Positions 6,201 to 59,855 of a DNA stretch of 64,000 nt are shown piece after piece. The notes below the pieces were generated by a model. That model was not told where the DNA came from. It was given only the letters and a program-made list of their open reading frames with translations, and ran no database searches. How positions within the stretch are numbered: the stretch's first letter is position 1; every line of letters begins with the position of its first letter. The stretch comes from a virus, in IMG/VR virus record IMGVR_UViG_3300025914_000009, positions 1 to 64,000 of that record, one strand, 5' to 3'. The position numbers and the translations under genes are program-made.

Positions 6201-9200
6201 GTCATGTTAGTCAGCTTAGCCCATATATCATAAATACCATTAATACCTGATACGTTGTGTAACAGATAGTTAAATAGCTTAGCATATTGAACCAGCTTAG
6301 GGAGCCTCATAGAAGAAGATTCTCTCTTGGATCTTACAGAGTCAGCAGCAGTCATTCCTGCTCTTGTAGCCTCTTTAACCCATTCAGAATCAGCTATACT
6401 AGCTATCAGCAGCTTCCATCTATTTGATGCATTGTTCTTTGCATCATATGTGAAGATATCCCTATCATACTCACTTTGATTCTTATTATCATCATCAAAA
6501 TCATCCTCATCTGCTATCTCTGTGTTACCTTCATCATCTGTTACAAACTCCACGTTGAATATCTTCAGATACCTTTCATGCTCTTTTACAAAAGATCCCC
6601 AGTTATCTTTTATTCTTCCCCAGATCTCTCTGATTGGTTCCAGCTCTCCAGCTATAGCTTCTCTCTCAGCATCACTAGTAGCCTCCATATAATCTCTCCC
6701 TATCTCAGCAAATAGAGTCCCTTCATCCTTTGCTTCATCTTCAAAGTAATCAGTGAATTTATCCTTTAGCCTGTCGTATATACTCTTTGCTGTTGTCTCA
6801 AAGTCATCCTCCAGCTGATCTATAATAGCTGCATTCTCACCGAAGATTTCTCCCAATAGTTCAGCAGTCATACCTTGAAGCATGTCCTGAACTATTCTTT
6901 CTGAGAAGTTCTCAAGTCCTGGTTCGCGATAATAACTAAACTCTGGTCTTTCCATAGGCCCCCTCAGGGAAGATGAATATTTTCTGTAATACCCATTATT
7001 CATCTTTTTGAAGAGCTCATTTCTCTTAGATGGATCTATTCCGAGAACCCATTTAATAAAGTCTAATAGCCTCTTAAAGAAGCTTCTTTGTTTAGGTTGC
7101 TCAGGTAGCTCTTCATTCATCTTATAGTTTCTGAACTCTTCAGCCAGTTGTTCTTTTGCTTCTTTTACAGTTGCATCAGAATAAGCTTTCTTCTCTCTAT
7201 TATATGTAGTGAAATCGCCCTTTCTTCCTGTAAACTCATCGTATAAGTCCTGCTGCTCCTTACCTGTAAGAAAATGATACCACACAGCTTCAAATGCCTC
7301 GTGGTAAGTTGTACCAATTTCAGCATTCTTATAGATATAGATCATATTATCTCTAAGAGCTCCCCATGCAAGACCTCCTTCAGTAGTTTTCAACATACCA
7401 TCAAGTATTTTAAACTTGAAGAAGTCAGGCAGAATTGATCTCACCTCAGCAAATTCAGCATTCAGATCGGCCTTAACATAACCCTTCCTTAGAGATTCAG
7501 CTCTTCTATATCTATCTGTTCCACGTTTGAAATCTCTACCTTTGAACTTGTCCTTTACGTCCTGGGTCTTATTAGAATTCGTATCATCCTGCTTGATCTG
7601 ATTTTGAGCGAATTTATTCATCAAAATCCTCTTAGCAACTTCTGGGCTTTTATAAGGAGTTATACTATTATCATCATTTACAGTTCCTATAGGCTCAATG
7701 TCAGTGATATTACCTTGAGCATCTCTTGTTAATACCTTGAATCCCAATTTCTTAATACCCATATCACCACCAAAGTTATGCTCGATATACTGAAGTGGTT
7801 CTTCTTGAGGAGCAGCCTCAGCCTCTGCTTTTGCTTCCTGTTCAGCTACTACTTCTGGAGGAGCCATCGGTTTAACTTCCTGCTCCTGAACACCTTGTTC
7901 CTTATTTTTTTTCTCTATATGCTCTATGAGAGCATCTACTGCTCCTGCAAGTTGAGATTTCTGAGCATCAGATAAATTAGTATCACTTAGATAAGCTTCC
8001 CTCAGGGAAAGCAAATTATCTATGGACATGCCAACTTTCTTTCCATCAGCAATAACTTTGGCTAAGGCAGCTTTAGCATCAGTAGCTGTAATGGCAGGAT
8101 TCTCTTCTACTCTTTTTTCCTCTGCAGTCTTTGGTTTCGTGAATTTTGAAGGGTCAAAATCAAAGCTTAGGATTTCAGAATACTTCTGAATAATAGGTCT
8201 TTCATTCCCCTGAGGGACTGCTATATTAGTAACTAGTGGTTCATTAGCCCTAGCCTTACCATCAGGAGTTCTATTTGATAAGAGGTAATAGTTATAATTC
8301 TTCCATCTATTAACAACTTCCACTTTACCATCATCTGCTTTAAGTTCTTGAAATTCAAGGTCATTTGCCTTGGGATCTCTGGCAATTCTTAGCAGTTCAC
8401 TATTCTTAATATTATGGTATGCCCCTTCAAGGAAGGTCATAATTCTATCCTTGTTGTCCTCCAGGGCTTGAGGAATTAGCTGAATAGCTTCTTTATTTGT
8501 ACCAAGATATAGGTTACCAAAATTGTCAATAGTAATAGAACTGGCTGTAGGAGCAATATTTTTCTCCGGGTTAGCCATATAGATTACCTTATGTAGGTAT
8601 TTAAAGAGTGGCCCAGATTCAACAGTTCTGTTTCTATCTGAGATAATCTTTAACATCTCAAAGATGTTCTTAGCTTCATCTTTTGTGAACTTTCTGGCAT
8701 TCAGATAGGTTAAATTACCTCCATAGTTTAGTAGTGGAGTTCCCAGTGGCATTGCTACACCCTGTTTGCTCGAAGCAATACCCTGACCTTCCTCATTGAA
8801 AGCCCCCATAACCGCTACATCCCCCAAGGTTGGCAGAGTGATAACAGGCTTATCCAGATCTCTTTCTCTTATGAGACCAGTTGTAATAACATTATTTCTT
8901 GAACCCTTATTTATAATATGAGGAATCCCTCTGCTAACTGCGAACTGGTAAGTTCTCTGCATAGCCCCCTCAGGGGTATTAATAGATAGAATGTTCTCTC
9001 TGGTTCCTCTCCACCAGTTTTTAGCAGCTTCTTCATCAATTCTATCTTTATTTGTATATCTATTTTCTGTTTCACCAGAAGAGTTTTGACGAGTAAGCTC
9101 TGTAGTAGCAAGTGTGGTGAAAATAGCCTCATTTGGATCTACTCTAGATCCAACCCTTCCCATTTTATCCCCTTTTGGACTTACAAAGAAGATACCCTGA

Positions 9201-42920: not shown

Positions 42921-45017
42921 TTATATAAATAATTTTGATCTTCTTCTACCATTATTATATCTGATTGGAGAAGAGTTTGAGAAGTCGATTACTTTGTTTG
43001 TGCTTTTTTGTCCCTTGAAGTAAGCTTCAAATCTGGGATCTTTCTTTTCTGTGGATACTACGAACTGTGGATTAAGATGATCCGCCAGGGCAATGGCCAG
43101 CTCCGCAGCTACTATACGGTCATAGTTCCCTTCCTCTGAGTTGAAGTTAATAATTTCTTCCAAGAGCATAGGATCAAATACTCTGGTTACTCCCAGGGTC
43201 TCTATATTCTTCTCCTCTTCTCTGAAGATGACATCATCCAGATAAGATTTAAGTAGACCATCCAGGTGGTTCCTGATCCTATCACTCGATCTATGAATAC
43301 CATAATCCCTTCTAACTGAGGTATTTGGAACTATTTCTCTAAGCCAGCTCGGTTGAGGGGCCAGGTATCTTGCAGCTTCTCCTTTCTTGAGCATATAATC
43401 TATAAAGCTATACTCATCATTTTCACAAAGGGTATAGGCATTATAGTACTTAATGAGGAGTCTGGCAGTCTCATTCCACTTGTCTTTACTATCTGGCCTG
43501 GCTACATAAGAAGCTACAAATAGGTTTTGATATCTATCCGAGGCAATGTCATGTACCCTTTTAAAGATATACACTGCCCCAAGGGAGTCTGAATATTCAG
43601 ATCTACTCTGTCTATAAGGGTCAACTCCAGCTGTATAGAGTCCGAATGGTGGTTCATCATCTATTGGGAACTCCCAAATGACTGGAGGAGCATCAAGTGA
43701 AGTTGTGCTATCTGCAGGAAACTTGCTGATTGGTAGTTTATCACTGAACTTATGGCAAATCTTTTCTCCATCATGATATAAGTCTACCGGAGTACCAGTC
43801 TTCCCAAGGGCAGTAAGTCTATTCTTTTGAGCTTTAGCAGCTTCGATATTAAAGTCATTCTTTGTAAGAACCAGGAAGCTATCAGATGGAACCAGAGGCC
43901 AGAAGGCTTTGAACTTCAATACAGTCTTCTGATTACCAGATTTTATAGCTCTTGCATATTCTTTTTCCCACCACTCCCTAGCCTTCTCATAGTTGGTTAC
44001 CAGAATGGTAATTCTTTCTAAGTCAGGGTGTTGTATTCCCAAATAATCAGATAGCTTCATTGGATCCTTGTACTTGATCTTAGCCATTAAGGCATCAATG
44101 AATCTACCCATCTTTGTTCCTGGTATTTCAGGATTATCAAAGGGGAGTATGTTATAGGCTTCAGGGTGAAGGAACACTTCAGATGCCTCTTTACCTTTTT
44201 CCATATCACCCCCAGTGCCTGCTATCATAGCAAGACAGGAAGGTTTATCTTCTTTGGATGTACCAGACCACCAGGCACCTTCAGAGTCTTTGAAACAGGC
44301 AATGAAGTTTCTAATGGTACCAATTTCATCTATAAGATGGAAACCAGGTCTAGCTCCTACTGCTGCATCGCTCTTTGATCCTTCTTCAAAGTTTCTTATC
44401 TGTATAGATGATTGAGAAGATAAAGGAGATGTTATCCCTGTCTTCTTATCTTTCCAACCAGCCTTTATTTCTTTTTTCCAGTCATTAACAATCCTTTGCT
44501 TCTGCAGGATTGGATGTAGATTGATCAGACCATCTTCTACCTTATCAGTAGCAAGCTTGATATATGTACCATTACCTGCACTGATGATAGCTTCTGATTT
44601 GTCAAAGAGAGTGTACTGATAACCAGCTCTTGAGCCAGCCATGATAGATTTCCCGAAGTCACGAGATCCAACCAGGGCATAGAACTTACCTTTCTGTTCA
44701 CATTGAGTAAAGTCATCAGCTATTATCCACTCAATGTCCCTGAGATAGGGAGTATCAATAATTCTGATCTTCTTATTAAGTCTTTCATTTTCAATGTACA
44801 TGGCGATTTTCCAGTACACTGTGTGCCAATAGAGCCATCCAGAAATGTATACTTTCCCATCTGCCAGATAAAAGCCTTCCTTCATCCTACGCTTTTCTTC
44901 AGTCCAGTACTCCCTAAAGGTTTCCATAGCTGCTTCATCTGTAGGATCGTAAATAGGTTCTACCTGGTCGGGGAACCAAATGTTTTTAGTTTTCTGGGTA
45001 TACTTCTGGTCTATCAT
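42921..45017 (-). CDS. Terminase large subunit
   Basis: Walker A GSRDFGKS; Walker B HLIDEIG; GTGG; nuclease AGVDPY and YDRIVA. Confidence 0.92.
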   Translation of the reverse strand: MIDQKYTQKTKNIWFPDQVEPIYDPTDEAAMETFREYWTEEKRRMKEGFYLADGKVYISGWLYWHTVYWKIAMYIENERLNKKIRIIDTPYLRDIEWIIADDFTQCEQKGKFYALVGSRDFGKSIMAGSRAGYQYTLFDKSEAIISAGNGTYIKLATDKVEDGLINLHPILQKQRIVNDWKKEIKAGWKDKKTGITSPLSSQSSIQIRNFEEGSKSDAAVGARPGFHLIDEIGTIRNFIACFKDSEGAWWSGTSKEDKPSCLAMIAGTGGDMEKGKEASEVFLHPEAYNILPFDNPEIPGTKMGRFIDALMAKIKYKDPMKLSDYLGIQHPDLERITILVTNYEKAREWWEKEYARAIKSGNQKTVLKFKAFWPLVPSDSFLVLTKNDFNIEAAKAQKNRLTALGKTGTPVDLYHDGEKICHKFSDKLPISKFPADSTTSLDAPPVIWEFPIDDEPPFGLYTAGVDPYRQSRSEYSDSLGAVYIFKRVHDIASDRYQNLFVASYVARPDSKDKWNETARLLIKYYNAYTLCENDEYSFIDYMLKKGEAARYLAPQPSWLREIVPNTSVRRDYGIHRSSDRIRNHLDGLLKSYLDDVIFREEEKNIETLGVTRVFDPMLLEEIINFNSEEGNYDRIVAAELAIALADHLNPQFVVSTEKKDPRFEAYFKGQKSTNKVIDFSNSSPIRYNNGRRRSKLFI

Positions 45018-45992: not shown

Positions 45993-46290
45993 CTTCCAGT
46001 TTTTTGATTATTTCTAACTCTTCTTCCTGAGTCATGTGAGCTTTCCATTTCCCCAAGGGGCATTCCTGAGATAGGGCTCTGGTCTTAAGATGTAGGTCAC
46101 AACCACATACTGTGCAGTGAAAATCTGGTCTGAAGGTCTTATAATTATTGATCTCTTTCTGAGCCTCAGAGTTTAGAAGGCAATGATTTCTGCATATATC
46201 CTCTCTCTGATTAGCCACATCTTCTATCTCCTTCTTAACGAAAATGGAGTTCCAGGTTCCTTCTAATATTCCTTTAAGACTTATTTTCAT
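45970..46290 (-). CDS. Cys-rich putative Zn-binding protein
   Basis: REDICRNHC...CTVCGC...KTR...CPLGKW. Confidence 0.7.
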   Translation of the reverse strand: MKISLKGILEGTWNSIFVKKEIEDVANQREDICRNHCLLNSEAQKEINNYKTFRPDFHCTVCGCDLHLKTRALSQECPLGKWKAHMTQEEELEIIKKLEDESSQAK

Positions 46291-46648
46291 ATCCTCCCTT
46301 TTTGGTTTTCATATAGGCAACTGTGGCCTTGAGCTTTTCCATCATGTTATTCCAAGTCTCCATATTCCTGATTTCCTCAGGTCTATCTTTAAGCTTAGCT
46401 TCCATATTGAAGATAAGTATTTCCAACTTCTGTATCTTCCTTCTAATCTTATTAGGAGAGGTCATGAACTTTCCAAATCCTGAGATCTCTACCTGTTCAT
46501 GATCTACCATTGCATCTCTTGCATCTTTAAACTGAAACATAATAACTTTCTCTACTATGTCTTCAGGAACTAAGGTCTTTATAGCAGTCCTTGTTATAAG
46601 AACACCTTTCAACTTGTCAGCATCTATACTACTCTGATTCTTTTGCAC
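46274..46648 (-). CDS. HU/IHF-like protein
   Basis: EDIVEKVI...QVEISGFGKF HU signature. Confidence 0.7.
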   Translation of the reverse strand: MQKNQSSIDADKLKGVLITRTAIKTLVPEDIVEKVIMFQFKDARDAMVDHEQVEISGFGKFMTSPNKIRRKIQKLEILIFNMEAKLKDRPEEIRNMETWNNMMEKLKATVAYMKTKKGGYENKS

Positions 46649-46988
46649 TTCCTGCCAGGTTTATTTGTAACTGAATATCTTTTGAAAAGTCAAGAGCAAT
46701 CTTTGGATTCACTCTATATTTCATATCTATCTGTACAAGAAAGCCAGCCTTCACAAGTTCCTGCTTCATATTCTCCAGAGATGCAAGTGAGCTATTAAAC
46801 ATCTCAACAAACTCCTTTCTAGCCGCAGGGGATGTTATGCTCCCTCGGGCAGCTGTGAATGCCAGGAGGTATAGCTGCTTTTGTGGAAGTCTTACTTCAT
46901 TCAGAGCAAGCAGTACAGAATAATACTTTATTGCCTTTTCCACCTCAGTAGCTACCTCTCTTCGTATTTTCTGCACAATTACCTTCAT
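46629..46988 (-). CDS. Winged-helix (RepL-like) DNA-binding protein
   Basis: RKEFVEMFNSSLASLENMKQELVKAGFL...YRVNPKI. Confidence 0.65.
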   Translation of the reverse strand: MKVIVQKIRREVATEVEKAIKYYSVLLALNEVRLPQKQLYLLAFTAARGSITSPAARKEFVEMFNSSLASLENMKQELVKAGFLVQIDMKYRVNPKIALDFSKDIQLQINLAGSAKESE

Positions 46989-47007
46989 GTAGCTTGGTTT
47001 TCTTTTA

Positions 47008-47015
47008 CAAAGTTA
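47008..47015 (-). promoter_or_regulatory. -7 box of the promoter for the packaging operon
   Basis: TAACTTTG about 20 nt upstream of ATG 46988; no clear -33. Confidence 0.5.
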
Positions 47016-47062
47016 TGGGCTTTTTTGGAAGTAATATATAACTCTTTGGGATGTAATGCTAT

Positions 47063-47094
47063 AAAAAGCAAAAATCCTCCCAATATGAGAGGAT
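47063..47094 (-). terminator. Terminator closing the tRNA array
   Basis: ATCCTCTCA-TAT-TGGGAGGAT-TTTTGCTTTTT. Confidence 0.8.
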
Positions 47095-47098
47095 CTTG

Positions 47099-47170
47099 AG
47101 GCAGATATCTGAATCGAACAGATGTATAGGGCTTTTGCAGAACCCGACCTTTCCACTTGGCTAATCTGCC
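47099..47170 (-). tRNA. tRNA-Cys(GCA)
   Basis: Cloverleaf; anticodon loop CTGCAAA; U73. Confidence 0.9.
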
Positions 47171-47175
47171 TTATG

Positions 47176-47247
47176 CACGTATCGGGGGAATCGAACCCAG
47201 TCCTCCTACAGTTTTGGAGACTGCTTGGCCACCATGGCCTGACACGT
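47176..47247 (-). tRNA. tRNA-Trp(CCA)
   Basis: Loop CTCCAAA; G73; weak T-stem. Confidence 0.85.
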
Positions 47248-47253
47248 GTGTAG

Positions 47254-47324
47254 ACTACCCTGCAAGATTCGAACTTGCGTTCTAACATCCGTAGTGTTGA
47301 GTCCTTCCACTGAACGAAGGGTAG
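47254..47324 (-). tRNA. tRNA-Arg(ACG)
   Basis: Loop CTACGGA; T-loop TTCGAAT. Confidence 0.9.
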
Positions 47325-47397
47325 TGGGGTGGAGTGCAGAGTCGAACTGCCTTACCTGGTTCACAGCCAAGTCCATTCACCGAATTGGTATCTCCAC
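47325..47397 (-). tRNA. tRNA-His(GTG), encoded CCA, atypical acceptor/T junction
   Basis: Loop CTGTGAA; C73-CCA. Confidence 0.8.
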
Positions 47398-47399
47398 AG

Positions 47400-47471
47400 A
47401 TGCCCCTGGAGGAATCGAACCTACCATCATGAGATCCAAAAGCTCACGCCCTTCCATTGTGCTAAGGGGCA
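47400..47471 (-). tRNA. tRNA-Gln(TTG)
   Basis: Loop TTTTGGA; U1-A72; 31-39 mismatch. Confidence 0.85.
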
Positions 47472-47482
47472 TTAAAAAAATG

Positions 47483-47554
47483 TGGTACAGAGTGGACTTG
47501 AACCACCAACGCCCAGCTCTTCAGGCTGGCGCTCTACATTGGAGCTACTGCACC
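47483..47554 (-). tRNA. tRNA-Phe(GAA)
   Basis: CCAGC-CTGAAGA-GCTGG. Confidence 0.9.
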
Positions 47555-47559
47555 ATATG

Positions 47560-47631
47560 AGCCTGAGCAGGAACTCGAATCCTGTTCTGATGCTTACAAG
47601 GCAACTGCACCACCATCAGTGCTTCTCAGGC
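47560..47631 (-). tRNA. tRNA-Thr(TGT)
   Basis: Loop CTTGTAA; GCC acceptor start. Confidence 0.88.
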
Positions 47632-47636
47632 TTATG

Positions 47637-47712
47637 TTGGGTGAATAGGATTCGAACCTACGCTTTCAGCCTCCCAAAGGCTGCCGGAAAAACCTGGCTT
47701 CCGTACCACCCA
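47637..47712 (-). tRNA. tRNA-Pro(TGG)
   Basis: CAGCC-TTTGGGA-GGCTG; A73. Confidence 0.9.
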
Positions 47713-47716
47713 ATAT

Positions 47717-47752
47717 AAAAGAAAAACCCCCAGTCTTGGTAGAAAGGGGGTT
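47717..47752 (-). terminator. Attenuator terminator of tRNA operon A
   Basis: AACCCCC...GGGGGTT plus TTTCTTTT, 4 nt before tRNA-Pro; 5' arm complementary to the leader ORF. Confidence 0.8.
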
Positions 47753-47773
47753 GACATGCAAGAGCTTTATATC

Positions 47774-47848
47774 CTATACATACATGACAACTCCCTTCCC
47801 TGGTTGAGGGCAGAAGGTAAACCACGTATGACGAAATACTTTATTCAT
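47774..47848 (-). CDS. Leader peptide A, MNKVFRHTWFTFCPQPGKGVVMYV
   Basis: 25 codons between promoter and terminator; codons 5-16 match the 8 downstream tRNAs. Confidence 0.85.
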   Translation of the reverse strand: MNKVFRHTWFTFCPQPGKGVVMYV

Positions 47849-47852
47849 AATG

Positions 47853-47884
47853 CAAATATATGGTGAATATTTTAATCCACCAAA
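47853..47884 (-). promoter_or_regulatory. Promoter of tRNA operon A
   Basis: TTTG-N20-TATATTTG, full Bacteroidota consensus. Confidence 0.85.
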
Positions 47885-47890
47885 AAAAAG

Positions 47891-47975
47891 TTGCACAGGT
47901 CAGATTCGAACTGACAAAGGCTAAAGCCCCGAGTTTTACAGACTCAGAAGGATCTCCCACTCCTGTCGCAGTGCA
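47891..47975 (-). tRNA. tRNA-Tyr(GTA)
   Basis: Loop CTGTAAA; long variable arm; A73. Confidence 0.85.
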
Positions 47976-47982
47976 ATGTAAG

Positions 47983-48065
47983 AGGAGAGCAGTGGCCCTG
48001 ATCCACATCCCCGAGGGAACAGTCAGCTTAGCAGGCTGCTCCTACATCGTGTAGGTTTACTCTCC
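47983..48065 (-). tRNA. tRNA-Ser(GCT), non-canonical T-loop
   Basis: GGAGAG acceptor; loop CTGCTAA; variable arm; T-loop ATCAGGG. Confidence 0.78.
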
Positions 48066-48072
48066 TTATAAG

Positions 48073-48165
48073 AGGAAGGCTGAGGACTCGAACCCCACTC
48101 CTGCTCATCGCCGAGCCCTAGTTTTCAAGACTAGTCGCCGCTCCTGTGCAGCTGCATAACCTTCC
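48073..48165 (-). tRNA. tRNA-Ser(TGA)
   Basis: CTAGT-CTTGAAA-ACTAG; long variable arm. Confidence 0.9.
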
Positions 48166-48171
48166 TTATAG

Positions 48172-48245
48172 TATCCCTGGTAGGACTTGAACCTACAGAA
48201 CTCAGATTTTAAGTCTGATATGGTTACCTATTACATCACAGGGAT
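48172..48245 (-). tRNA. tRNA-Leu(TAA), short variable loop
   Basis: TCAGA-CTTAAAA-TCTGA; A73. Confidence 0.85.
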
Positions 48246-48250
48246 AAGTG

Positions 48251-48323
48251 TACCGAGGATGGGATTCGAACCCACACTTTTCAGTTCCTAAGACTGTTGC
48301 CTCTCCCGTTGGGCTACCAAGGT
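48251..48323 (-). tRNA. tRNA-Leu(TAG), short variable loop
   Basis: Loop CTTAGGA; A73; two acceptor mismatches. Confidence 0.82.
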
Positions 48324-48327
48324 ATGT

Positions 48328-48362
48328 AAAACAAAAAACCCAGCTGTAGAAACAGACTGGGC
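48328..48362 (-). terminator. Attenuator terminator of tRNA operon B
   Basis: GCCCAG(T)CTGT-TTCT-ACAGCTGGGT plus TTTTTGTTTT. Confidence 0.85.
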
Positions 48363-48385
48363 TAAAAAATAAAGTCTAATGAACT

Positions 48386-48454
48386 TTACATACTATACCC
48401 AGCCTGTCTGTGTAACAGGAGTGAACTGGAATAGTATGATAGAAGATTGAACAT
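48386..48454 (-). CDS. Leader peptide B, MFNLLSYYSSSLLLHRQAGYSM
   Basis: 23 codons; codons 4-14 are all Leu/Ser/Tyr. Confidence 0.88.
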   Translation of the reverse strand: MFNLLSYYSSSLLLHRQAGYSM

Positions 48455-48458
48455 GATG

Positions 48459-48490
48459 CAAATGTAATAACTCTTTTTGAATTTTCCAAA
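48459..48490 (-). promoter_or_regulatory. Promoter of tRNA operon B
   Basis: TTTG-N20-TACATTTG. Confidence 0.85.
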
Positions 48491-48499
48491 TAATTCTAG

Positions 48500-48573
48500 T
48501 GGAGCTAAAGAGAATCGAACTCTTCTCAGGCTCCTTGCAAGGGAGCTTCGCCAGCCTTGGAACATGTAACCCC
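48500..48573 (-). tRNA. tRNA-Ala(TGC)
   Basis: Loop CTTGCAA; G3:U70; A73. Confidence 0.92.
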
Positions 48574-48679
48574 TAAATCTGAAGCATAACCTTTCTACCT
48601 TCTCTGTAAACAGCTTTATTACAGTTATGAAATTGTATACCAGTAGATTGTACATGCTCCAGAGGTTCTTTCAAACCAG

Positions 48680-48752
48680 TTGCCTGAGGTGGGATCGAAC
48701 CACCAGCCTTCTTCGTATCAGGAAGTTGCTCAGACCATTGAGCTACCAGGCA
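48680..48752 (-). tRNA. tRNA-Ile(GAT)
   Basis: Loop CTGATAC; A73. Confidence 0.9.
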
Positions 48753-48844
48753 ATTTGATATAGGGGAAGAGGTGGTTCTTACACAGCCCACCTTCAGAAG
48801 TGTGCTTCTTCCAGGTTTTCACCCTCCCCCACTATATCTTCTAG

Positions 48845-48918
48845 TTGTCCCTAAGGGAGTTGAACCCTTGATCTTCTCATTATGAGTGAGCTGCTCTGAC
48901 CACCTGAGCTAAGGGACG
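48845..48918 (-). tRNA. tRNA-Ile2(CAT), probable lysidine type reading ATA
   Basis: CCCTTAGCTCAG..GGTCAGAGCAG..ACTCATAAT resembles bacterial Ile2; C4-G69 and C5-G68. Confidence 0.75.
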
Positions 48919-48925
48919 ATTTGAG

Positions 48926-48998
48926 CCGAGAGTGGGGGATTCGAACCCCAACCTTCACCTTGACAGGGTGATACTGCAGCCATTACACCACACCCTCG
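48926..48998 (-). tRNA. tRNA-Asp(GTC)
   Basis: TCACC-CTGTCAA-GGTGA; G73. Confidence 0.9.
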
Positions 48999-49087
48999 GA
49001 TTAGCCACATGCCGGACAATTACTTGACTGCTGTTAGAAACCAGCTGGTTTCCATCTTTTTTGTCCGCATGTAGCTTTAATTATTTG

Positions 49088-49161
49088 TACTCCCAGTGGG
49101 AATTGAACCCTACATTTTTACCTTGAAAGGGTAATGTCCTTACCATTTAGACGATGGGAGC
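49088..49161 (-). tRNA. tRNA-Glu(TTC)
   Basis: TTACC-CTTTCAA-GGTAA. Confidence 0.9.
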
Positions 49162-49182
49162 ATAGCTCCTCACCCTCCTTTA

Positions 49183-49395
49183 TTACATTAGCCATCTTAT
49201 CAATAGTTTAGCCTCCATTACTGGAAGAAATTTCGCATCCTGTATGTCCCCCAGGGGAATGGAGAAATTAATGATTCCATCAATAGAACCTGTCCAAAGG
49301 TTAGTCATGTACAGCATCCTTTCTTTATCCACATACAAAAGCTCAGCCTTTGGATTTTTCTTATACAACTCCTTTTTAATTTCATTTAGTTCCAT
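49183..49395 (-). CDS. Hypothetical 70-aa protein inside tRNA operon C (start MELNEIKK)
   Basis: The track start overlaps tRNA-Gly; ATG 49395 lies just 3' of it. Confidence 0.75.
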   Translation of the reverse strand: MELNEIKKELYKKNPKAELLYVDKERMLYMTNLWTGSIDGIINFSIPLGDIQDAKFLPVMEAKLLIRWLM

Positions 49396-49396
49396 G

Positions 49397-49467
49397 AGCA
49401 CCAACAGGGAGTCGAACCCTGCTCTCAGGCTTGGAAGGCTAGTGCATTACCGAAATGCTTCTGGTGC
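49397..49467 (-). tRNA. tRNA-Gly(TCC)
   Basis: Loop CTTCCAA; U73. Confidence 0.88.
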
Positions 49468-49515
49468 ATAGAGGGGGACAGGTTATTTAATCCTTTAAGG
49501 GACTCCCCCAGACCC

Positions 49516-49593
49516 TGGTTGCGGGAGAGGGAATCGAACCCTCGTAGTTCAGCTTATGAGACTGAGCTGGCACCATCTCCAGTCTACCCCGCA
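49516..49593 (-). tRNA. tRNA-Met(CAT), fMet-like acceptor, encoded CCA
   Basis: TGCGGGG...TCCCGCAACCA; loop CTCATAA; lacks the three G-C anticodon-stem pairs. Confidence 0.85.
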
Positions 49594-49841
49594 ATCTTTA
49601 ATTGTTTCTTTTCCTCCTCTGTCAAATCATAATCCTCTTTTACCAAAGTCAAAATTAAGTTAAGTTCCTCAGCAAATCTAATTCTTCCTCTAAAGACTAT
49701 TTCATCAAACCTCTTATTTCTGATAGACACTATACTAAAATCATGAGAGTCATTTTTTAATATAGTTATCTGATAAGAATCATCATGAAACTGCCATGGC
49801 AACCTCTGCTCGAAACCTAGTTCTAACAAGTGCTCTTTCAT
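49584..49841 (-). CDS. Hypothetical 85-aa protein inside tRNA operon C
   Basis: ORF fills the Asn-Met spacer; its stop lies inside the tRNA-Met 5' end. Confidence 0.7.
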   Translation of the reverse strand: MKEHLLELGFEQRLPWQFHDDSYQITILKNDSHDFSIVSIRNKRFDEIVFRGRIRFAEELNLILTLVKEDYDLTEEEKKQLKIAG

Positions 49842-49842
49842 G

Positions 49843-49915
49843 AGGACAGTTTAGGGATCGAACCTAAGACCTAAGAGTTAACAGCTCTTTGCTACTGCCA
49901 CTGAGCTAACTGTCC
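49843..49915 (-). tRNA. tRNA-Asn(GTT)
   Basis: AAGAG-CTGTTAA-CTCTT. Confidence 0.9.
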
Positions 49916-49959
49916 ATTTCCAGTTTTGTACTCCACGCAGATACTGGTAAACTGACCTG

Positions 49960-50031
49960 AGGACTTACAAGGAATCCAACCTTGATAGCTTGCTTAGAAG
50001 GCAAGAGCTCTATGCATTGAGCTATAAGTCC
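49960..50031 (-). tRNA. tRNA-Arg(TCT)
   Basis: CTTGC-CTTCTAA-GCAAG; T-loop TTGGATT. Confidence 0.85.
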
Positions 50032-50034
50032 ATG

Positions 50035-50107
50035 TTGTCCCACTTAGAATCGAACTAAGGTCGCTAGTTTGTAAGACTAGAGCACTCAACCACTGTGCTA
50101 TAGGACA
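50035..50107 (-). tRNA. tRNA-Val(TAC)
   Basis: CTAGT-CTTACAA-ACTAG. Confidence 0.9.
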
Positions 50108-50113
50108 ATCTTG

Positions 50114-50185
50114 TTCCCCTGGAAGGGCTCGAACCTTCAACCTTCTCCTTAAGAGGGAGTAGCTCTACCATTAAGCTACAGAGGA
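50114..50185 (-). tRNA. tRNA-Lys(CTT)
   Basis: Loop CTCTTAA. Confidence 0.9.
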
Positions 50186-50197
50186 ATTTTATCTCTG

Positions 50198-50268
50198 TAC
50201 CCCCACCAAGGATCGAACTTGGTTCCACTGGTTAAAAGCCAGTTACTTCACCATAAAGCTTTGAGGGT
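50198..50268 (-). tRNA. tRNA-Lys(TTT)
   Basis: ACTGG-CTTTTAA-CCAGT. Confidence 0.9.
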
Positions 50269-50274
50269 AATTGT

Positions 50275-50311
50275 AAACAAAAATCCCCAGAGCTTATGGG
50301 CTCCAGGGACT
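50275..50311 (-). terminator. Attenuator terminator of tRNA operon C
   Basis: GTCCCTGGAGC-CCATAA-GCTCTGGGGAT plus TTTTGTTT. Confidence 0.88.
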
Positions 50312-50334
50312 CTTGTTTGCTGTTTATAAACCTG

Positions 50335-50415
50335 TTAATTAGCAGACAGTGGAATCCCTGGAGCAGATTTCTCTGCACCTCTTACAATCCCATTATCCAC
50401 TATTGAGTAAAACAT
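50335..50415 (-). CDS. Leader peptide C, MFYSIVDNGIVRGAEKSAPGIPLSAN
   Basis: 27 codons; codons 5-16 match the downstream tRNAs; A-rich 5' UTR. Confidence 0.85.
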   Translation of the reverse strand: MFYSIVDNGIVRGAEKSAPGIPLSAN

Positions 50416-50438
50416 TGTTTGCTTTTTTAAGATTTTAG

Positions 50439-50470
50439 CAAATATAATACCACTTTTTGACATGGCCAAA
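50439..50470 (-). promoter_or_regulatory. Promoter of tRNA operon C
   Basis: TTTG-N20-TATATTTG. Confidence 0.85.
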
Positions 50471-50478
50471 TAATTCCA

Positions 50479-50898
50479 CTACTTTTTTTCTCCTAGCTCC
50501 CCTGGGGAAGATAGCTGATTAGAGTCACAAATTATACCCAGGACTGGCTGACCTATCTTCCCTGAACTCTGCCTCTTCTCCATAAACTCATCCAGCTTAG
50601 CTTCAAACTTCTTCCTTGGCCAGGTACACACAAACTCTCCATACATATCACTGACCACAATAGTCAGATCAAATCCTCCTTCAGCTACCTCCTCTACCTT
50701 CCTCTCTCTGGAAAATCCATCATGCCACATAAGCTTATGAAGATCTCTGGCAGGTATCCTAACCCAACCAGTAATCCAATCTATTGGCACAGGCTCCTCA
50801 GTAGTATCTTTATCTTCCTGTTCCATAGCCTTCTTAACAGAGAATCCATCATATATCTTCATAGGAAAGCTAAAGAACTCTTCAGTGAATTTACCCAT
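50479..50898 (-). CDS. Hypothetical 139-aa protein, weak LytTR/FlbD-like pattern
   Basis: ORF track; own promoter; VRIPARDL...LTIVVSDMYGEFVCTWPRKKFEAKL. Confidence 0.65.
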   Translation of the reverse strand: MGKFTEEFFSFPMKIYDGFSVKKAMEQEDKDTTEEPVPIDWITGWVRIPARDLHKLMWHDGFSRERKVEEVAEGGFDLTIVVSDMYGEFVCTWPRKKFEAKLDEFMEKRQSSGKIGQPVLGIICDSNQLSSPGELGEKK

Positions 50899-50913
50899 AC
50901 TTTATATTTTATT

Positions 50914-50945
50914 CAAAGGTAATACGTTATAGTGGAATTTCCAAA
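50914..50945 (-). promoter_or_regulatory. Promoter with ACTATAACGTA in its spacer
   Basis: TTTG-N20-TACCTTTG. Confidence 0.75.
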
Positions 50946-51771
50946 TGGTGAATAAGTGAGAGAGACCTGTCAGTACTTATAGTACTTGCCCCTGGGAGTA
51001 CTTGGAAGTTAATAGATTTGAGCCCCCTACTAACGGTAGGTATCAGAAAAACTCGGGGTTTTGTCTCATAGGCTTTTTATATAACCTATTGATATATAAT
51101 TACTTAATCCCAATATCTTCGGTTAACCATGTTTTAAAACTTATGTATATCTATGAGTATGATGGTGACACCATCCCTTGACCCCTTGGCAAAATCGTCG
51201 TGCTGGGGGTATCCCCCCATGACCCCTTGGGGAAAGTGCGATTCAGATTATGTCACATCGCCTTGAAAATCAAGGATTTATGTTTTAAGGAGTCGAACCA
51301 AAGCCAGAGGTTGGGAACCAGTAGTACCAATACAGCGTGAGGAAAGCTCCTTATACATATATATAATGGTATAACCCTAAAACCCCATCAACATGGTACT
51401 AACAGCAGTCATAACAACAGCTTTAATAGTCTCTGCATTCATTTGGAACCACAAGATGAACAGAGCTAAGTGATTGATACACAATGAATTGGGACGGTCA
51501 GAGAGAGTTTGAGTACACTTTACAACTCATAACTCTCTCATTTTCTATTACTTAGTTAACCTGATGAGGAATAGTATACATTATGGCATTTATTACACCA
51601 CTACATATATGTTATCTACTATATTCCCTTAGGGAGGATATAGATAACCTTTTAGAGCTCAATATTAAAATGGTCTTCAAGCAGGGCTAAAATACTGTGA
51701 ATACTACAGAAAACAGTAGTTAGTTGACCTATTTTCGAATTAAATTTCTTCAACAATAAAACATCAAGACA

Positions 51772-59590: not shown

Positions 59591-59663
59591 GGGTGTGTAG
59601 CTCAATGGATAGAGTGTCTGACTTCGGATCAGAAAGTTAAGGGTTCGAATCCCTTCATGCCCA
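59591..59663 (+). tRNA. tRNA-Arg(TCG)
   Basis: Canonical cloverleaf; TCTGA-CTTCGGA-TCAGA. Confidence 0.92.
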
Positions 59664-59855
59664 CAGGTTTTATGGCTAATGGTGTTTGATTAGTATTGCA
59701 AGAATTTAGCAATAATCAGTACTATTAAACGCGCCCTGAGTTTCTACTTGGGGCTCTTTTTTATTAACAAACTTAGTTTTTTTTTTAGAGCATATAATCG
59801 TTAGAGCCCTCTTGTGTCTACAGGAGGGCATTTTTAACCAAAAAAACCAAAAATT

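Follow-up and report, generated by a model that had tools for sequence, protein, structure and literature searches.

Putative leader-peptide attenuators ahead of three tRNA blocks in a crAss-like phage

The tRNA array and its leader cassettes

The window, i.e. the 64,000-nucleotide stretch of DNA analyzed here, originates from a crAss-like phage, whose host probably belongs to the Bacteroidota, and harbors 25 tRNA genes on its minus strand, which are arranged in three blocks between positions 47098 and 50268 (Table 1). Using default settings, ARAGORN detected 21 of these genes over the same interval and on the same strand, and relaxed searches added four more, namely Ala(TGC), Ser(TGA) and Trp(CCA) with thresholds lowered to 95% and Ser(GCT) with 80%; at three of these four sites, Rfam gave tRNA-like matches below threshold. 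Together, the 25 tRNAs serve all 20 amino acids, and the blocks split the sense codons into 21 + 14 + 26 = 61, exactly as the first-pass annotation had counted. Its further statement that the whole genetic code is covered holds for the 20 amino acids, whereas coverage of all 61 codons presupposes four-way reading by U34 tRNAs. Block C is interrupted by structured spacers and by two small ORFs, at 49584-49841 and 49183-49395.

As also proposed beforehand, every block is preceded by a cassette composed of a promoter, a short ORF and an intrinsic terminator. The three matches to the promoter pattern TTTG-N20-TAnnTTTG, each followed by an ATG ORF, were located with a regular expression; strict matches to this pattern occur only eight times on both strands of the 124,983-bp genome. 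Leader ORF C has an A-rich 5' UTR of 23 nt. The ATG of leader B lies only 4 nt past the -7 box, and the mRNA is therefore probably leaderless. The three terminators consist of stems of 9-10 bp followed by T5-T6 tails, and the stems end 14-15 nt from the first tRNA; the expected distance of 4-6 nt between terminator and tRNA was found when measured to the end of the T-rich tail (about 4-6 nt). No Rfam leader family matched at E ≤ 1.

Table 1 Features of the tRNA array and of the three leader cassettes.
Feature	Position	Strand	Evidence
tRNA block C: Lys, Lys, Val, Arg(TCT), Asn, Met, Gly, Glu, Asp, Met, Ile, Ala	48497..50268	-	ARAGORN, Rfam
tRNA block B: Leu(TAG), Leu(TAA), Ser(TGA), Ser(GCT), Tyr(GTA)	47890..48323	-	ARAGORN, Rfam
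tRNA block A: Pro, Thr, Phe, Gln, His, Arg(ACG), Trp, Cys	47098..47712	-	ARAGORN, Rfam
Array-closing terminator, directly 3' of tRNA-Cys	47071..47097	-	
Leader C promoter, TTTG-N20-TATATTTG	50439..50470	-	Regular expression; one of 8 strict genome matches
Leader ORF C, 26 codons + stop, MFYSIVDNGIVRGAEKSAPGIPLSAN	50335..50415	-	
Sensor run C, codons 5-16, IVDNGIVRGAEK	50368..50403	-	
Leader C region 2, antiterminator strand; -25.7 kcal/mol with terminator 5' arm	50351..50365	-	
Terminator C, region 3 and stem-loop, then TTTTTGTTT tail	50284..50315	-	
Leader B promoter, TTTG-N20-TACATTTG	48459..48490	-	Regular expression
Leader ORF B, 22 codons + stop, MFNLLSYYSSSLLLHRQAGYSM; ATG 4 nt 3' of -7 box	48386..48454	-	Regular expression
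Sensor run B, codons 4-14, LLSYYSSSLLL	48413..48445	-	
Leader B region 2, antiterminator strand; -20.0 kcal/mol with terminator 5' arm	48396..48408	-	
Terminator B stem-loop, then TTTTTTGTTTT tail	48339..48361	-	
Leader A promoter, TTTG-N20-TATATTTG	47853..47884	-	Regular expression
Leader ORF A, 24 codons + stop, MNKVFRHTWFTFCPQPGKGVVMYV; ATG 4 nt 3' of -7 box	47774..47848	-	Regular expression
Sensor run A, codons 5-16, FRHTWFTFCPQP	47801..47836	-	
Leader A region 2, antiterminator strand; -17.9 kcal/mol with terminator 5' arm	47784..47801	-	
Terminator A stem-loop, then TTTTTCTTTT tail	47727..47750	-	

Leader codons and the downstream tRNAs

Each leader ORF contains a run of 11-12 consecutive codons, here termed the sensor run, which had been claimed to encode only amino acids of the tRNAs in its own block, including the division of arginine into CGN and AGR. 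Indeed, all 35 codons of the three runs belong to the set of the cognate block, and the arginine split is kept, with CGT accompanying tRNA-Arg(ACG) and AGA accompanying tRNA-Arg(TCT). According to the built-in rule of the script, in which ATA is read by both CAT tRNAs, a cognate codon is present for 24 of the 25 tRNA species, only Lys-CTT being missed. Run A provides one for 8/8 tRNAs, run B (CTN, TTA, TCN, AGT and TAY codons) at least one for each of the five, and run C for 11 of 12, assuming that a CAT tRNA acts as an Ile2 that reads ATA. The original chance estimates, which were based on uniform codon use, had to be corrected by the codon usage of the phage itself: because the sets hold 24% (A), 19% (B) and 58% (C) of its codons, the runs in A (~3e-8 per start position) and B (~9e-9) are rarer than stated, whereas the run in C (~1e-3) is much commoner. 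The 503 other short ORFs from this genome yielded in-set runs of at most 6 (A), 9 (B) and 12 codons (C, reached once). Leader C alone is statistically weak: its set comprises 58% of codons, the binomial P is 0.004-0.035, and one random genome ORF also reaches 12.

The same cassette was found 23 times in 10 genomes, i.e. the window, L001, L011, L055, L116, L151, L112, L094, L070 and the isolated Leptolyngbya phage Lbo-JY46, with terminase identities to the window from 86% down to 35%; leader ORF C is kept in L001, L055, L116, L151 and Lbo-JY46. All 23 cassettes possess a stem of 5-15 bp (-10.4 to -21.1 kcal/mol) and a T-rich tail, ending 7-18 nt from the tRNA. The leader sequences are divergent between phages, and their codon content tracks the tRNAs; between the window and L011, leader A differs by three synonymous and no non-synonymous changes over 10 aligned codons. 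For an objective test, the 10 codons directly 5' of the computed region 2 were taken, a segment set by RNA structure. In the 23 leaders, 194 of the 230 codons were in-set with the downstream tRNAs, and of the tRNA classes present in a block 120/139 were represented in its leader, compared to 36/321 of the absent ones, a difference whose P value is only nominal, the samples being related. That leader composition should track the downstream tRNAs in homologous arrays had been suggested as a check, and its outcome was favorable: in all six phages with three leaders, the true leader-block pairing gave 25-28 in-set codons out of 30, while none of the five other permutations exceeded 14. Furthermore, every B leader contains CTN, TTR, TCN, AGY and TAY codons and thereby offers a codon for every isoacceptor in 6 of the 7 B blocks, the exception being Lbo-JY46, whose block is devoid of AGY- and TAY-reading tRNAs. 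As negative controls, neither the 24-tRNA array of cr111_1 nor any of 14 isolated tRNAs in relatives had such a cassette.

Codons also follow tRNAs that have moved between blocks. In L116, L151 and L112, the Pro-type block includes tRNAs for Asp and Asn, and in L094 for Asp alone; D/N codons occur in 4/4 Pro-type runs with an Asp or Asn tRNA in the block, compared to 0/6 without. L116 and L151 have Arg(ACG) in block 1, and the leader of this block has CGC beside AGA in either phage; the four block-1 leaders without this tRNA have no CGN codon. With Cys(GCA) in block 1 of Lbo-JY46, Cys codons are found in leader 1 and none in leader 3. Block 1 of L151 lacks a Val tRNA and its run a Val codon, and the L070 block of Pro, Gln and His is matched by the run HPQPQH. 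Mismatches were encountered as well: three Thr codons, a Cys and an Ile codon in the L094 leader, for which no tRNA was found in its block; unexplained Ser and Thr codons in L112; Tyr and AGT codons in leader 2 of Lbo-JY46, whose entire record yielded neither a Tyr nor a Ser(GCT) tRNA; and Asn and Ala codons in the leader 1 run of L151 without a tRNA in the block. In L116, a CGG codon lies directly past the run of leader 3, and Thr stands between the run and Lys in leader 1. Swapping near-identical tRNA sets between lineages shifted the 10-codon score by 0-1 codon in most pairs, the swapped set scoring one higher in two directions (L151_1, L070), and the fine covariation therefore rests on few codons, perhaps 4-6 independent events. 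Some tRNA identities were read by eye, namely L116 Gln (6385-6455), L116 Lys (4352-4422) and Val versus Cys(ACA) in Lbo-JY46.

RNA folding and the proposed gating of the blocks

The ORF segment directly 3' of the sensor run (region 2) pairs with the 5' arm of the terminator (2:3 pairing). This complementarity, already pointed out in the first-pass annotation, exceeds that of shuffled arms in all three leaders (Table 1), the shuffled means being -10.4 (C), -8.5 (B) and -11.6 kcal/mol (A), with z scores of -6.7, -4.5 and -2.7. The minimum-free-energy folds comprise a 1:2 hairpin and the terminator, with z scores of -2.16 (A), -5.24 (B) and -5.04 (C) versus 200 dinucleotide shuffles. In an equilibrium model of ribosome occupancy, in which the first 3k+12 nt were masked and the most stable fold was taken, the terminator gave way to the antiterminator with the A site at codons 4-12 (A) or 3-12 (B), which overlaps the sensor runs, and returned when the ribosome was placed farther 3'. 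For leader C, the terminator was favored at 25 of 26 codon positions; therefore, a kinetic argument is needed, according to which the 2:3 duplex would have to form ahead of synthesis of the 3' arm. The geometry of 1:2, 2:3 and 3:4 pairings is largely conserved across the cassettes. Antiterminator and terminator covary within a cassette: the mean energy is -16.9 kcal/mol for cognate duplexes, compared to -10.4 kcal/mol for non-cognate ones, and among the 23 arms the cognate one takes first place in 10 cases and one of the top three places in 17, with unconvincing pairing in L055_B (rank 19 of 23), L011_B (7) and the three Lbo-JY46 leaders (5-9).

The cognate leader-block pairing in 6/6 phages and the conserved geometry support the earlier reading, and we consider it likely that ribosome-mediated transcription attenuators of the trp/his/ilv type gate the blocks individually; the phage would then probably produce a tRNA set only when ribosomes slow on the codons of that block. 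From the parts, their geometry and conservation, and leader codons that track the tRNA content, we infer leader translation, stalling, read-through and feedback as follows. A host-type promoter would give rise to a transcript that opens (almost) directly with an ORF of 19-36 codons. On ribosome-free RNA, region 1 with the sensor codons would pair with region 2, letting the 3:4 terminator fold and end transcription 10-15 nt short of the first tRNA; a ribosome reaching the stop codon would mask region 2, with the same result. If an aminoacyl-tRNA is scarce, the ribosome would linger on a sensor codon and mask region 1, leaving region 2 free to pair with the 5' arm of the terminator, and RNA polymerase would enter the tRNA block. 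Fresh tRNAs would accelerate decoding of the leader and close the gate, resulting in a block-by-block loop of supply and demand. Amino-acid starvation would stall ribosomes, too, a situation that extra tRNA does not cure.

That the ORFs are untranslated, the cassettes being either simple promoter-terminator pairs with constitutive activity or elements that act through RNA structure alone, with a codon match by chance, could draw on the near absence of a 5' UTR in two window leaders; however, this appears extremely improbable in view of runs of 12 and 11 codons drawn from sets that make up 24% and 19% of the codons used, of frame, start and stop being kept in all 23 cassettes at terminase identities down to 35%, of synonymous changes inside conserved runs and of the cognate assignment in 6/6 phages, and a constitutive terminator ahead of 25 tRNA genes would silence them. 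Translated attenuators could instead serve as generic gauges of translation activity or timing, such as ribosome availability or infection stage, with their amino-acid content as inherited baggage. Each leader would sense 3-11 different amino acids, and the signal would therefore be a broad OR gate in any case; specificity of leader C is hard to show because its set covers 58% of codons, and codons are retained without matching tRNAs in L094, L112 and leader 2 of Lbo-JY46. Yet the leaders partition the amino acids as the blocks do, the isoacceptor classes are present in all B leaders, and D/N, CGN and Cys codons travel with their tRNAs, which makes a generic gauge unlikely.

A special case of attenuation with a named trigger would be a counter-defence device that is shut in a healthy host and opened by tRNA destruction, either by phage-induced host shut-off or by an anticodon nuclease, of which PrrC, RloC and PARIS are host kinds. 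The full set of 20 amino-acid specificities fits pool replacement better than codon-bias tuning. However, neither the window nor the loci offer a link between the array and a defence system, no gene for tRNA repair or a nuclease was identified adjoining it, and we regard this trigger as a tentative, rather doubtful option. Searches of the four neighboring small proteins gave no match in Pfam or PHROGs, nor did the terminase in Pfam.

Relation to known regulatory systems

Our literature search found no description of leader-peptide control of phage tRNA arrays. Multivalent leaders are familiar from enterobacteria, where ilvGMEDA senses Ile/Val/Leu and thrL Thr/Ile, next to trpL, hisL, pheL and leuL. 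The phage cassettes resemble these amino-acid operon leaders in the short ORF with regulatory codons, the alternative 1:2, 2:3 and 3:4 hairpins, the intrinsic terminator ahead of the first structural gene and the read-through, predicted for the phage, upon stalling at hungry codons. In contrast, they address up to 11 tRNA species per leader, mostly with 1-2 codons each and no homopolymeric run, several are probably leaderless mRNAs, and the host is probably a member of the Bacteroidota. Moreover, they regulate tRNAs rather than biosynthetic enzymes, and therefore the product itself is the sensed molecule; what sets them apart is that the tRNAs under control decode the very codons through which their leader is regulated. 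T-box riboswitches bind uncharged tRNA directly via one specifier codon and need no ribosome. Sensing of specific tRNAs and a terminator/antiterminator switch ahead of translation-related genes are shared with the phage cassette, which differs by its conserved translatable ORF of many codons; T-box families were absent among the Rfam matches at E ≤ 1.

The general mechanism of leader-peptide attenuation is summarized in work on Deinococcus deserti, in which leaderless leader peptides are predicted ahead of aminoacyl-tRNA synthetase and amino-acid genes (PMC4007540). As far as described there, these leaders likewise start at or adjoining the transcription start and attenuate genes of the translation apparatus, e.g. 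cysS with Cys codons in its leader, but they belong to synthetase or biosynthesis genes on a bacterial chromosome and sense one amino acid each, rather than preceding tRNA genes or a phage array (PMC4007540). The trn operon of Anabaena sp. PCC 7120, a long tRNA array induced by translational stress (PMC8421152, PMC10272220), is according to the available text controlled by a protein repressor, TrcR, acting on direct repeats over the -10 box, and neither codon-specifically nor block-wise (PMC8421152); a count of 'leader', 'attenuat' and 'terminator' in that text gave 0 for each. Comprising some 26 accessory tRNA genes and, as far as reported, silent until translation is impaired, the operon follows the same physiological logic that we propose for the phage.

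Three tRNA blocks and the cassette before each of them

Default ARAGORN settings returned 21 tRNA genes in the array; relaxing the threshold to 95% added Ala(TGC), Ser(TGA) and Trp(CCA), and relaxing it to 80% added Ser(GCT), with three of these four places also giving sub-threshold tRNA-like matches in Rfam. Together, these calls bear out the 25 tRNAs in three blocks that the first-pass annotation had read from the sequence (blocks C, B and A in the order of transcription, each behind the leader ORF of the same letter). The same 5' cassette, consisting of a TTTG-N20-TAnnTTTG promoter, a short ORF starting with ATG and a terminator, was indeed found, on the minus strand, before all three blocks, which confirms the architecture as first described. 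The promoter pattern, which we take to be the Bacteroidota primary-sigma consensus (-33 TTTG, -7 TAnnTTTG) and which is predicted here from the motif, also precedes most leaders in relatives and matches strictly at only eight places in the genome of 124,983 bp. The window leader ORFs comprise 26 (C), 22 (B) and 24 (A) codons, and the mRNAs of leaders A and B are probably leaderless, because the ATG lies 4 nt past the -7 box. The window terminators are GC-rich hairpins with a T5-T6 tail, the stem ending 14-15 nt before the first tRNA.

Including relatives, we counted 23 cassettes in 10 genomes, the window among them. All 23 have a putative ORF with start and stop between promoter and terminator (19-36 codons; leader 1 of the related locus L055 has no ATG and was read from GTG) and a terminator between ORF and tRNA (stem -10.4 to -21.1 kcal/mol, T-rich tail), which ends 7-18 nt before the tRNA. 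The leader terminators were defined by local folding; pairing of the U-tail with the A-rich 5' end had spoilt the automatic call in 7 of 17 leaders, and a simple terminator scan caught only the array-closing terminator and missed all three in the window, because their stems are mismatched internally or their tails fall outside its rule.

Features of the tRNA array, its surroundings and selected loci of relatives
Feature	Record	Position	Strand	Remarks
Terminator closing the whole tRNA array	window	47097-47071	minus	simple terminator scan
tRNA genes, default ARAGORN	window	47098-50268	minus	21 genes
Block C, 12 tRNAs	window		minus	Lys, Lys, Val, Arg-TCT, Asn, Met, Gly, Glu, Asp, Met, Ile, Ala
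Block B, 5 tRNAs	window		minus	Leu, Leu, Ser, Ser, Tyr
Block A, 8 tRNAs	window		minus	Pro, Thr, Phe, Gln, His, Arg-ACG, Trp, Cys
Leader C ORF	window			MFYS-IVDNGIVRGAEK-SAPGIPLSAN; middle run 12 codons
Leader B ORF	window			MFN-LLSYYSSSLLL-HRQAGYSM; middle run 11 codons
Leader A ORF	window			MNKV-FRHTWFTFCPQP-GKGVVMYV; middle run 12 codons
Fourth strict promoter match	window	50914-50945	minus	
139-aa ORF	window	50479-50898		
Small ORF in block C	window	49584-49841	minus	85 aa
Small ORF in block C	window	49183-49395	minus	70 aa
tRNA-sized spacers in block C	window	48578-48678, 48753-48843, 48999-49086	minus	
tRNA-Arg(TCG)	window	59591-59664	plus	
Gln(TTG) call	whole genome	76009-76103	plus	95 nt
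Putative terminase	window	42921-45017		698 aa
ORF inside block C	L001	4504-4798		
Upstream ATG of leader 2	L151	4889-5017		
Untyped spacer	L116	6064-6180		paired ends, T-arm-like hairpin
Untyped spacers	L112	4014-4086, 4162-4224		
tRNA-Met before leader	L112	3673-3942		
tRNA-Met before leader	L094	3028-3305		
ORF and hairpin before tRNA-Asn	L131	12617-12712		
Three leaders	Lbo-JY46 (PP438436.1)	118600-123600		

The fourth strict promoter match precedes a 139-aa ORF that ends just upstream of the leader C promoter, and transcripts reading through from there would likewise encounter attenuator C. The start of each small ORF inside block C is no more than a few bases from the end of a tRNA; neither ORF has a promoter match of its own or a match in Pfam or PHROGs, and for four small proteins neighbouring the array there was likewise none in either database. 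ORFs inside block C also occur in the relatives L001, L055 and Leptolyngbya phage Lbo-JY46, where one is a homing endonuclease. The three tRNA-sized spacers of block C fold into hairpins in which neither ARAGORN nor Rfam called a tRNA, and comparable untyped spacers are present in the relatives L116 and L112; they may represent degenerate or non-canonical tRNAs. Outside the array lie two more tRNAs, of which Arg(TCG) would cover CGG, a codon that tRNA-Arg(ACG) should not read. In the relative L151, an in-frame upstream ATG, 8 nt past the promoter, would lengthen leader 2 from 20 to 42 codons.

Leader codons and the tRNAs of their blocks

Conceptual translation of the window ORFs bore out that the sensor runs (12, 11 and 12 codons in C, B and A) are limited to the amino acids of their own block's tRNAs, and the proposed split of the codons into sets of 21 (A), 14 (B) and 26 (C) was reproduced. 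At least one cognate codon in the own run was found for 24 of the 25 tRNAs, the sole miss being Lys-CTT; for leader C, in which ATA and ATT are both present, this count takes ATA as read by CAT tRNAs, an assumption of the script. Leader B carries CTN, TTA, TCN, AGT and TAY codons, matching its five tRNAs, and arginine is divided as described, with CGT in leader A alongside tRNA-Arg(ACG) and AGA in leader C alongside tRNA-Arg(TCT).

Runs of this kind might arise by chance, and in 503 other short ORFs of the genome the longest in-set runs reached 6 (A), 9 (B) and, in one ORF, 12 codons (C). Since sets A and B hold just 24% and 19% of the phage's own codon usage (set C, 58%), runs A and B are far beyond chance; run C alone is not, because one random ORF likewise reaches 12. 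Chance as an account of the codon match was rejected on this control and the cognate-assignment test: in all six three-leader phages, the true assignment of leaders to blocks was the best of 6 permutations and placed 25-28 of 30 codons in-set, while every other permutation reached at most 14. A T-box or other known riboswitch before the tRNAs was rejected after a cmscan of positions 46000-51500 at E <= 1, in which none of the 27 matches was to a T-box family or to an Rfam leader family (His, Trp, Thr, Leu, Phe and the like); all were tRNA, tRNA-like, or weak chance matches to a plastid UTR family.

For the 23 leaders, the codons scored were not chosen by eye; in every leader, the 10 codons that precede the computed beginning of region 2 (the antiterminator strand) on its 5' side served as an objective window. 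Within these structure-defined windows 194 of 230 codons were in-set, and 120 of 139 tRNA classes present in the block were seen in the leader window, versus 36 of 321 absent classes, a difference for which the P value is nominal because the leaders are related. The cognate set ranked top among eight distinct sets in 16 of the 17 leaders examined first. Judging from the predicted peptides, the leader sequences diverge and their make-up is kept: the B-type runs read LSYSSLYLL, LSYYLSSLLLSS, LLLSYYSSLSLL, YLLSYLSSLSY, SYLLSLSYLSL and YYSLSLSLS, the A-type runs FRHTWFTCQPTQP, RHTWFTFCPQ and RHTWFTFTPQC, and leader A differs between the window and the relative L011 by three synonymous and no non-synonymous changes over 10 aligned codons.

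The first-pass annotation had expected leader codons to follow tRNA content in homologous arrays, which held for the cognate assignment and for several rearrangements. L116 and L151 have Asp and Asn tRNAs in the Pro-type block, where their leaders read NNWHNTFTFTPNQPD and NWHNNTFNFQPDT; their block 1 contains Arg(ACG), and the leaders there, IIIVGRGAER and INIGGIEIIREAGRK, carry CGC beside AGA. The same block 1 has lost Asp and Asn, with Asp codons absent from both leaders, and in L151 it has no Val tRNA and the run no Val codon. In Lbo-JY46, tRNA-Cys(GCA) lies in block 1, and Cys occurs in leader 1 (IDIRNIDIVCAEGVNKC) and not in leader 3 (TRQHTQFWFPT). In the relative L070, the run HPQPQH precedes a block of three tRNAs (Pro, Gln, His).

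The expectation did not hold throughout. The leader of the relative L094, TFTFTFFPCIFQDQPD, has Thr, Cys and Ile without such tRNAs in its block (Pro, Asp, Phe, Gln), and that of L112 has unexplained Ser and Thr, its block containing untyped spacers of 73 and 63 nt. Leader 2 of Lbo-JY46 retains Tyr and AGT codons, but the record as a whole yielded neither a Tyr nor a Ser(GCT) tRNA; leader 1 of L151 contains Asn and Ala codons for which its block has no tRNAs. In L116, CGG directly follows the run of leader 3, and Thr stands between the run and Lys in leader 1. Swapping closely similar sets between lineages shifted the 10-codon score by 0-1 in most pairs, with the other lineage's set scoring one higher in two directions. 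Support for the fine covariation thus comes from a small number of codons and perhaps 4-6 independent events. Three tRNA identities among the relatives were assigned by eye, and the tRNA calls in doubt are those in the spacers of L112 and L094, in the 117-nt spacer of L116, and Val versus Cys(ACA) in Lbo-JY46.

A predicted RNA switch and its possible role

The most stable fold of each window leader consists of a 5' hairpin and the terminator (z versus 200 shuffles, -2.16 for A, -5.24 for B and -5.04 for C). In this hairpin, which is part of the minimum-free-energy fold in all three, the sensor codons (region 1) are base-paired to the ORF's 3' half, which would sequester region 2 in an untranslated leader. 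As claimed from the sequence, this 3' half is also complementary to the 5' arm of the terminator (region 3), namely in codons 16-22, which directly follow the run, and the resulting 2:3 duplexes were computed at -25.7 (C), -20.0 (B) and -17.9 kcal/mol (A), with z of -6.7, -4.5 and -2.7 versus shuffled arms.

When the RNA that a ribosome would cover was masked in silico and the remainder refolded, the antiterminator was the best fold with the A site at codons 4-12 (A) and 3-12 (B), and the terminator returned once the ribosome was further 3'. For leader C the terminator, which is very stable, was favoured at 25 of 26 codon positions and the expected switch appeared at one position only; since the terminator wins there at equilibrium, read-through would need the 2:3 helix to form first, during transcription. 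As modelled, the window leaders have the geometry of trp/his-type attenuation, in which a leader without a ribosome, or with a ribosome that reaches the stop codon, would give termination, and a ribosome stalled on the sensor codons would give read-through. Across the 23 cassettes, antiterminators follow their own terminators: cognate 2:3 duplexes average -16.9 kcal/mol versus -10.4 kcal/mol for non-cognate ones, and the cognate arm ranks first of 23 in 10 cassettes and among the top three in 17. The pairing is weak in leaders L055_B, L011_B and L001_A and in the three leaders of Lbo-JY46.

These sequence comparisons and folds support leader-peptide attenuation of the phage tRNA blocks. Ribosomes would translate the leader, scarcity of any aminoacyl-tRNA of the block would stall them on a sensor codon, and stalling would allow the antiterminator to form and the block to be transcribed, until the newly made tRNAs shut the gate again. 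Candidate triggers are a mismatch in codon usage, growing demand from late genes, shut-off of the host and a tRNA-cleaving defence; the present results neither favour nor contradict the link to anticodon nucleases drawn in the first-pass annotation. We see roughly even chances that the arrays are closed-loop homeostats, in which each leader carries, like a barcode, about one codon for every tRNA species of its block and each tRNA feeds back on its own transcription via the speed of its use, so that the phage detects and repairs a host decoding shortfall block by block, be it due to the codon mismatch of a new host, host shut-off or a tRNA-cleaving defence.

Neither the reason for the large tRNA sets of phages nor their control is settled, and the control logic here can be read from the sequence. 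It makes a specific, falsifiable prediction for every tRNA, namely that its depletion opens its block, and since the isolated phage Lbo-JY46 carries the system, bench tests would be feasible. If true, this is the first case found of leader-peptide attenuation acting on tRNA genes, extending textbook attenuation to a loop in which the product is the sensed molecule, and the leaders would be natural, compact, codon-specific sensors of decoding capacity, usable as reporters.

Published systems and related phages

As far as sequence and folding tell, the phage leaders share the structural characteristics of the multivalent leader-peptide attenuators of amino-acid operons. Known attenuators regulate genes of amino-acid biosynthesis or aminoacyl-tRNA synthetases, whereas the phage leaders precede tRNAs. 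For Deinococcus deserti, a published analysis predicted leaderless leader peptides (PMC4007540). The nearest functional parallel in print is the trn tRNA array of Anabaena, which is induced by translational stress via the repressor TrcR at the promoter (PMC8421152), unlike the control proposed for the phage leaders; the 2021 article mentions neither leader, attenuation nor terminator. Literature searches, supplements aside, returned no description of tRNA genes under leader-peptide or attenuator control.

Relatives were searched with the putative terminase, which has no Pfam match and resembles terminases annotated in crAss-like phages (26-28% identity, tblastn), used alone and as an alignment of 35 homologues, and also with the terminase of L116. 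Cassette-bearing arrays were found in L001, L011, L055 and L116 (86%, 66%, 58% and 35% terminase identity), in L151, L112, L094 and L070, and in Lbo-JY46 (35%), which its record gives as an isolated phage; L150 is identical to L116 over the array. The count of 23 cassettes is separate from about 30 long Logan/ENA contigs with terminases 58-89% identical. In viral contigs, a degenerate DNA pattern for leader A hit L001 (as L007) and, by chance, one further contig that has no tRNAs (L008), with no other match.

The cassette is not universal. The terminase scan of genome contigs gave one distant locus without tRNAs (L054, 34%), a metagenome scan gave 19 loci, and among the 23 loci scanned, including three from IMG/VR, tRNAs were found only in L011. 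Of 82 loci scanned for tRNAs, 13 have any tRNA and seven have three or more, and 33 further relatives' records hold 0-4 tRNAs each (Rfam). Inspection by eye revealed no leader-plus-terminator upstream of 14 isolated tRNAs in relatives, and the cassette is absent from the 24-tRNA array of the phage cr111_1. The scattered tRNAs of G005 gave a single weak candidate, in which a solitary tRNA-Asn (locus L131) is immediately preceded by a 14-codon ORF, MANNKKGSLTLNVQ, and by a hairpin that has a T-run, and which could be a minimal one-tRNA attenuator.

Two variants of the arrangement were noted. In L112 and L094 the promoter is followed by tRNA-Met, the leader ORF and the terminator; tRNA-Met, directly behind the promoter, would therefore be constitutive, and the leader would be translated on a transcript that begins with a tRNA, or released from it. 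In Lbo-JY46 all three leaders lie behind the Bacteroidota-type motif TTTG-N20-TAnnTTTG, although the recorded host is a cyanobacterium; another polymerase may recognise these motifs, or the phage may have a true host other than the one on record.
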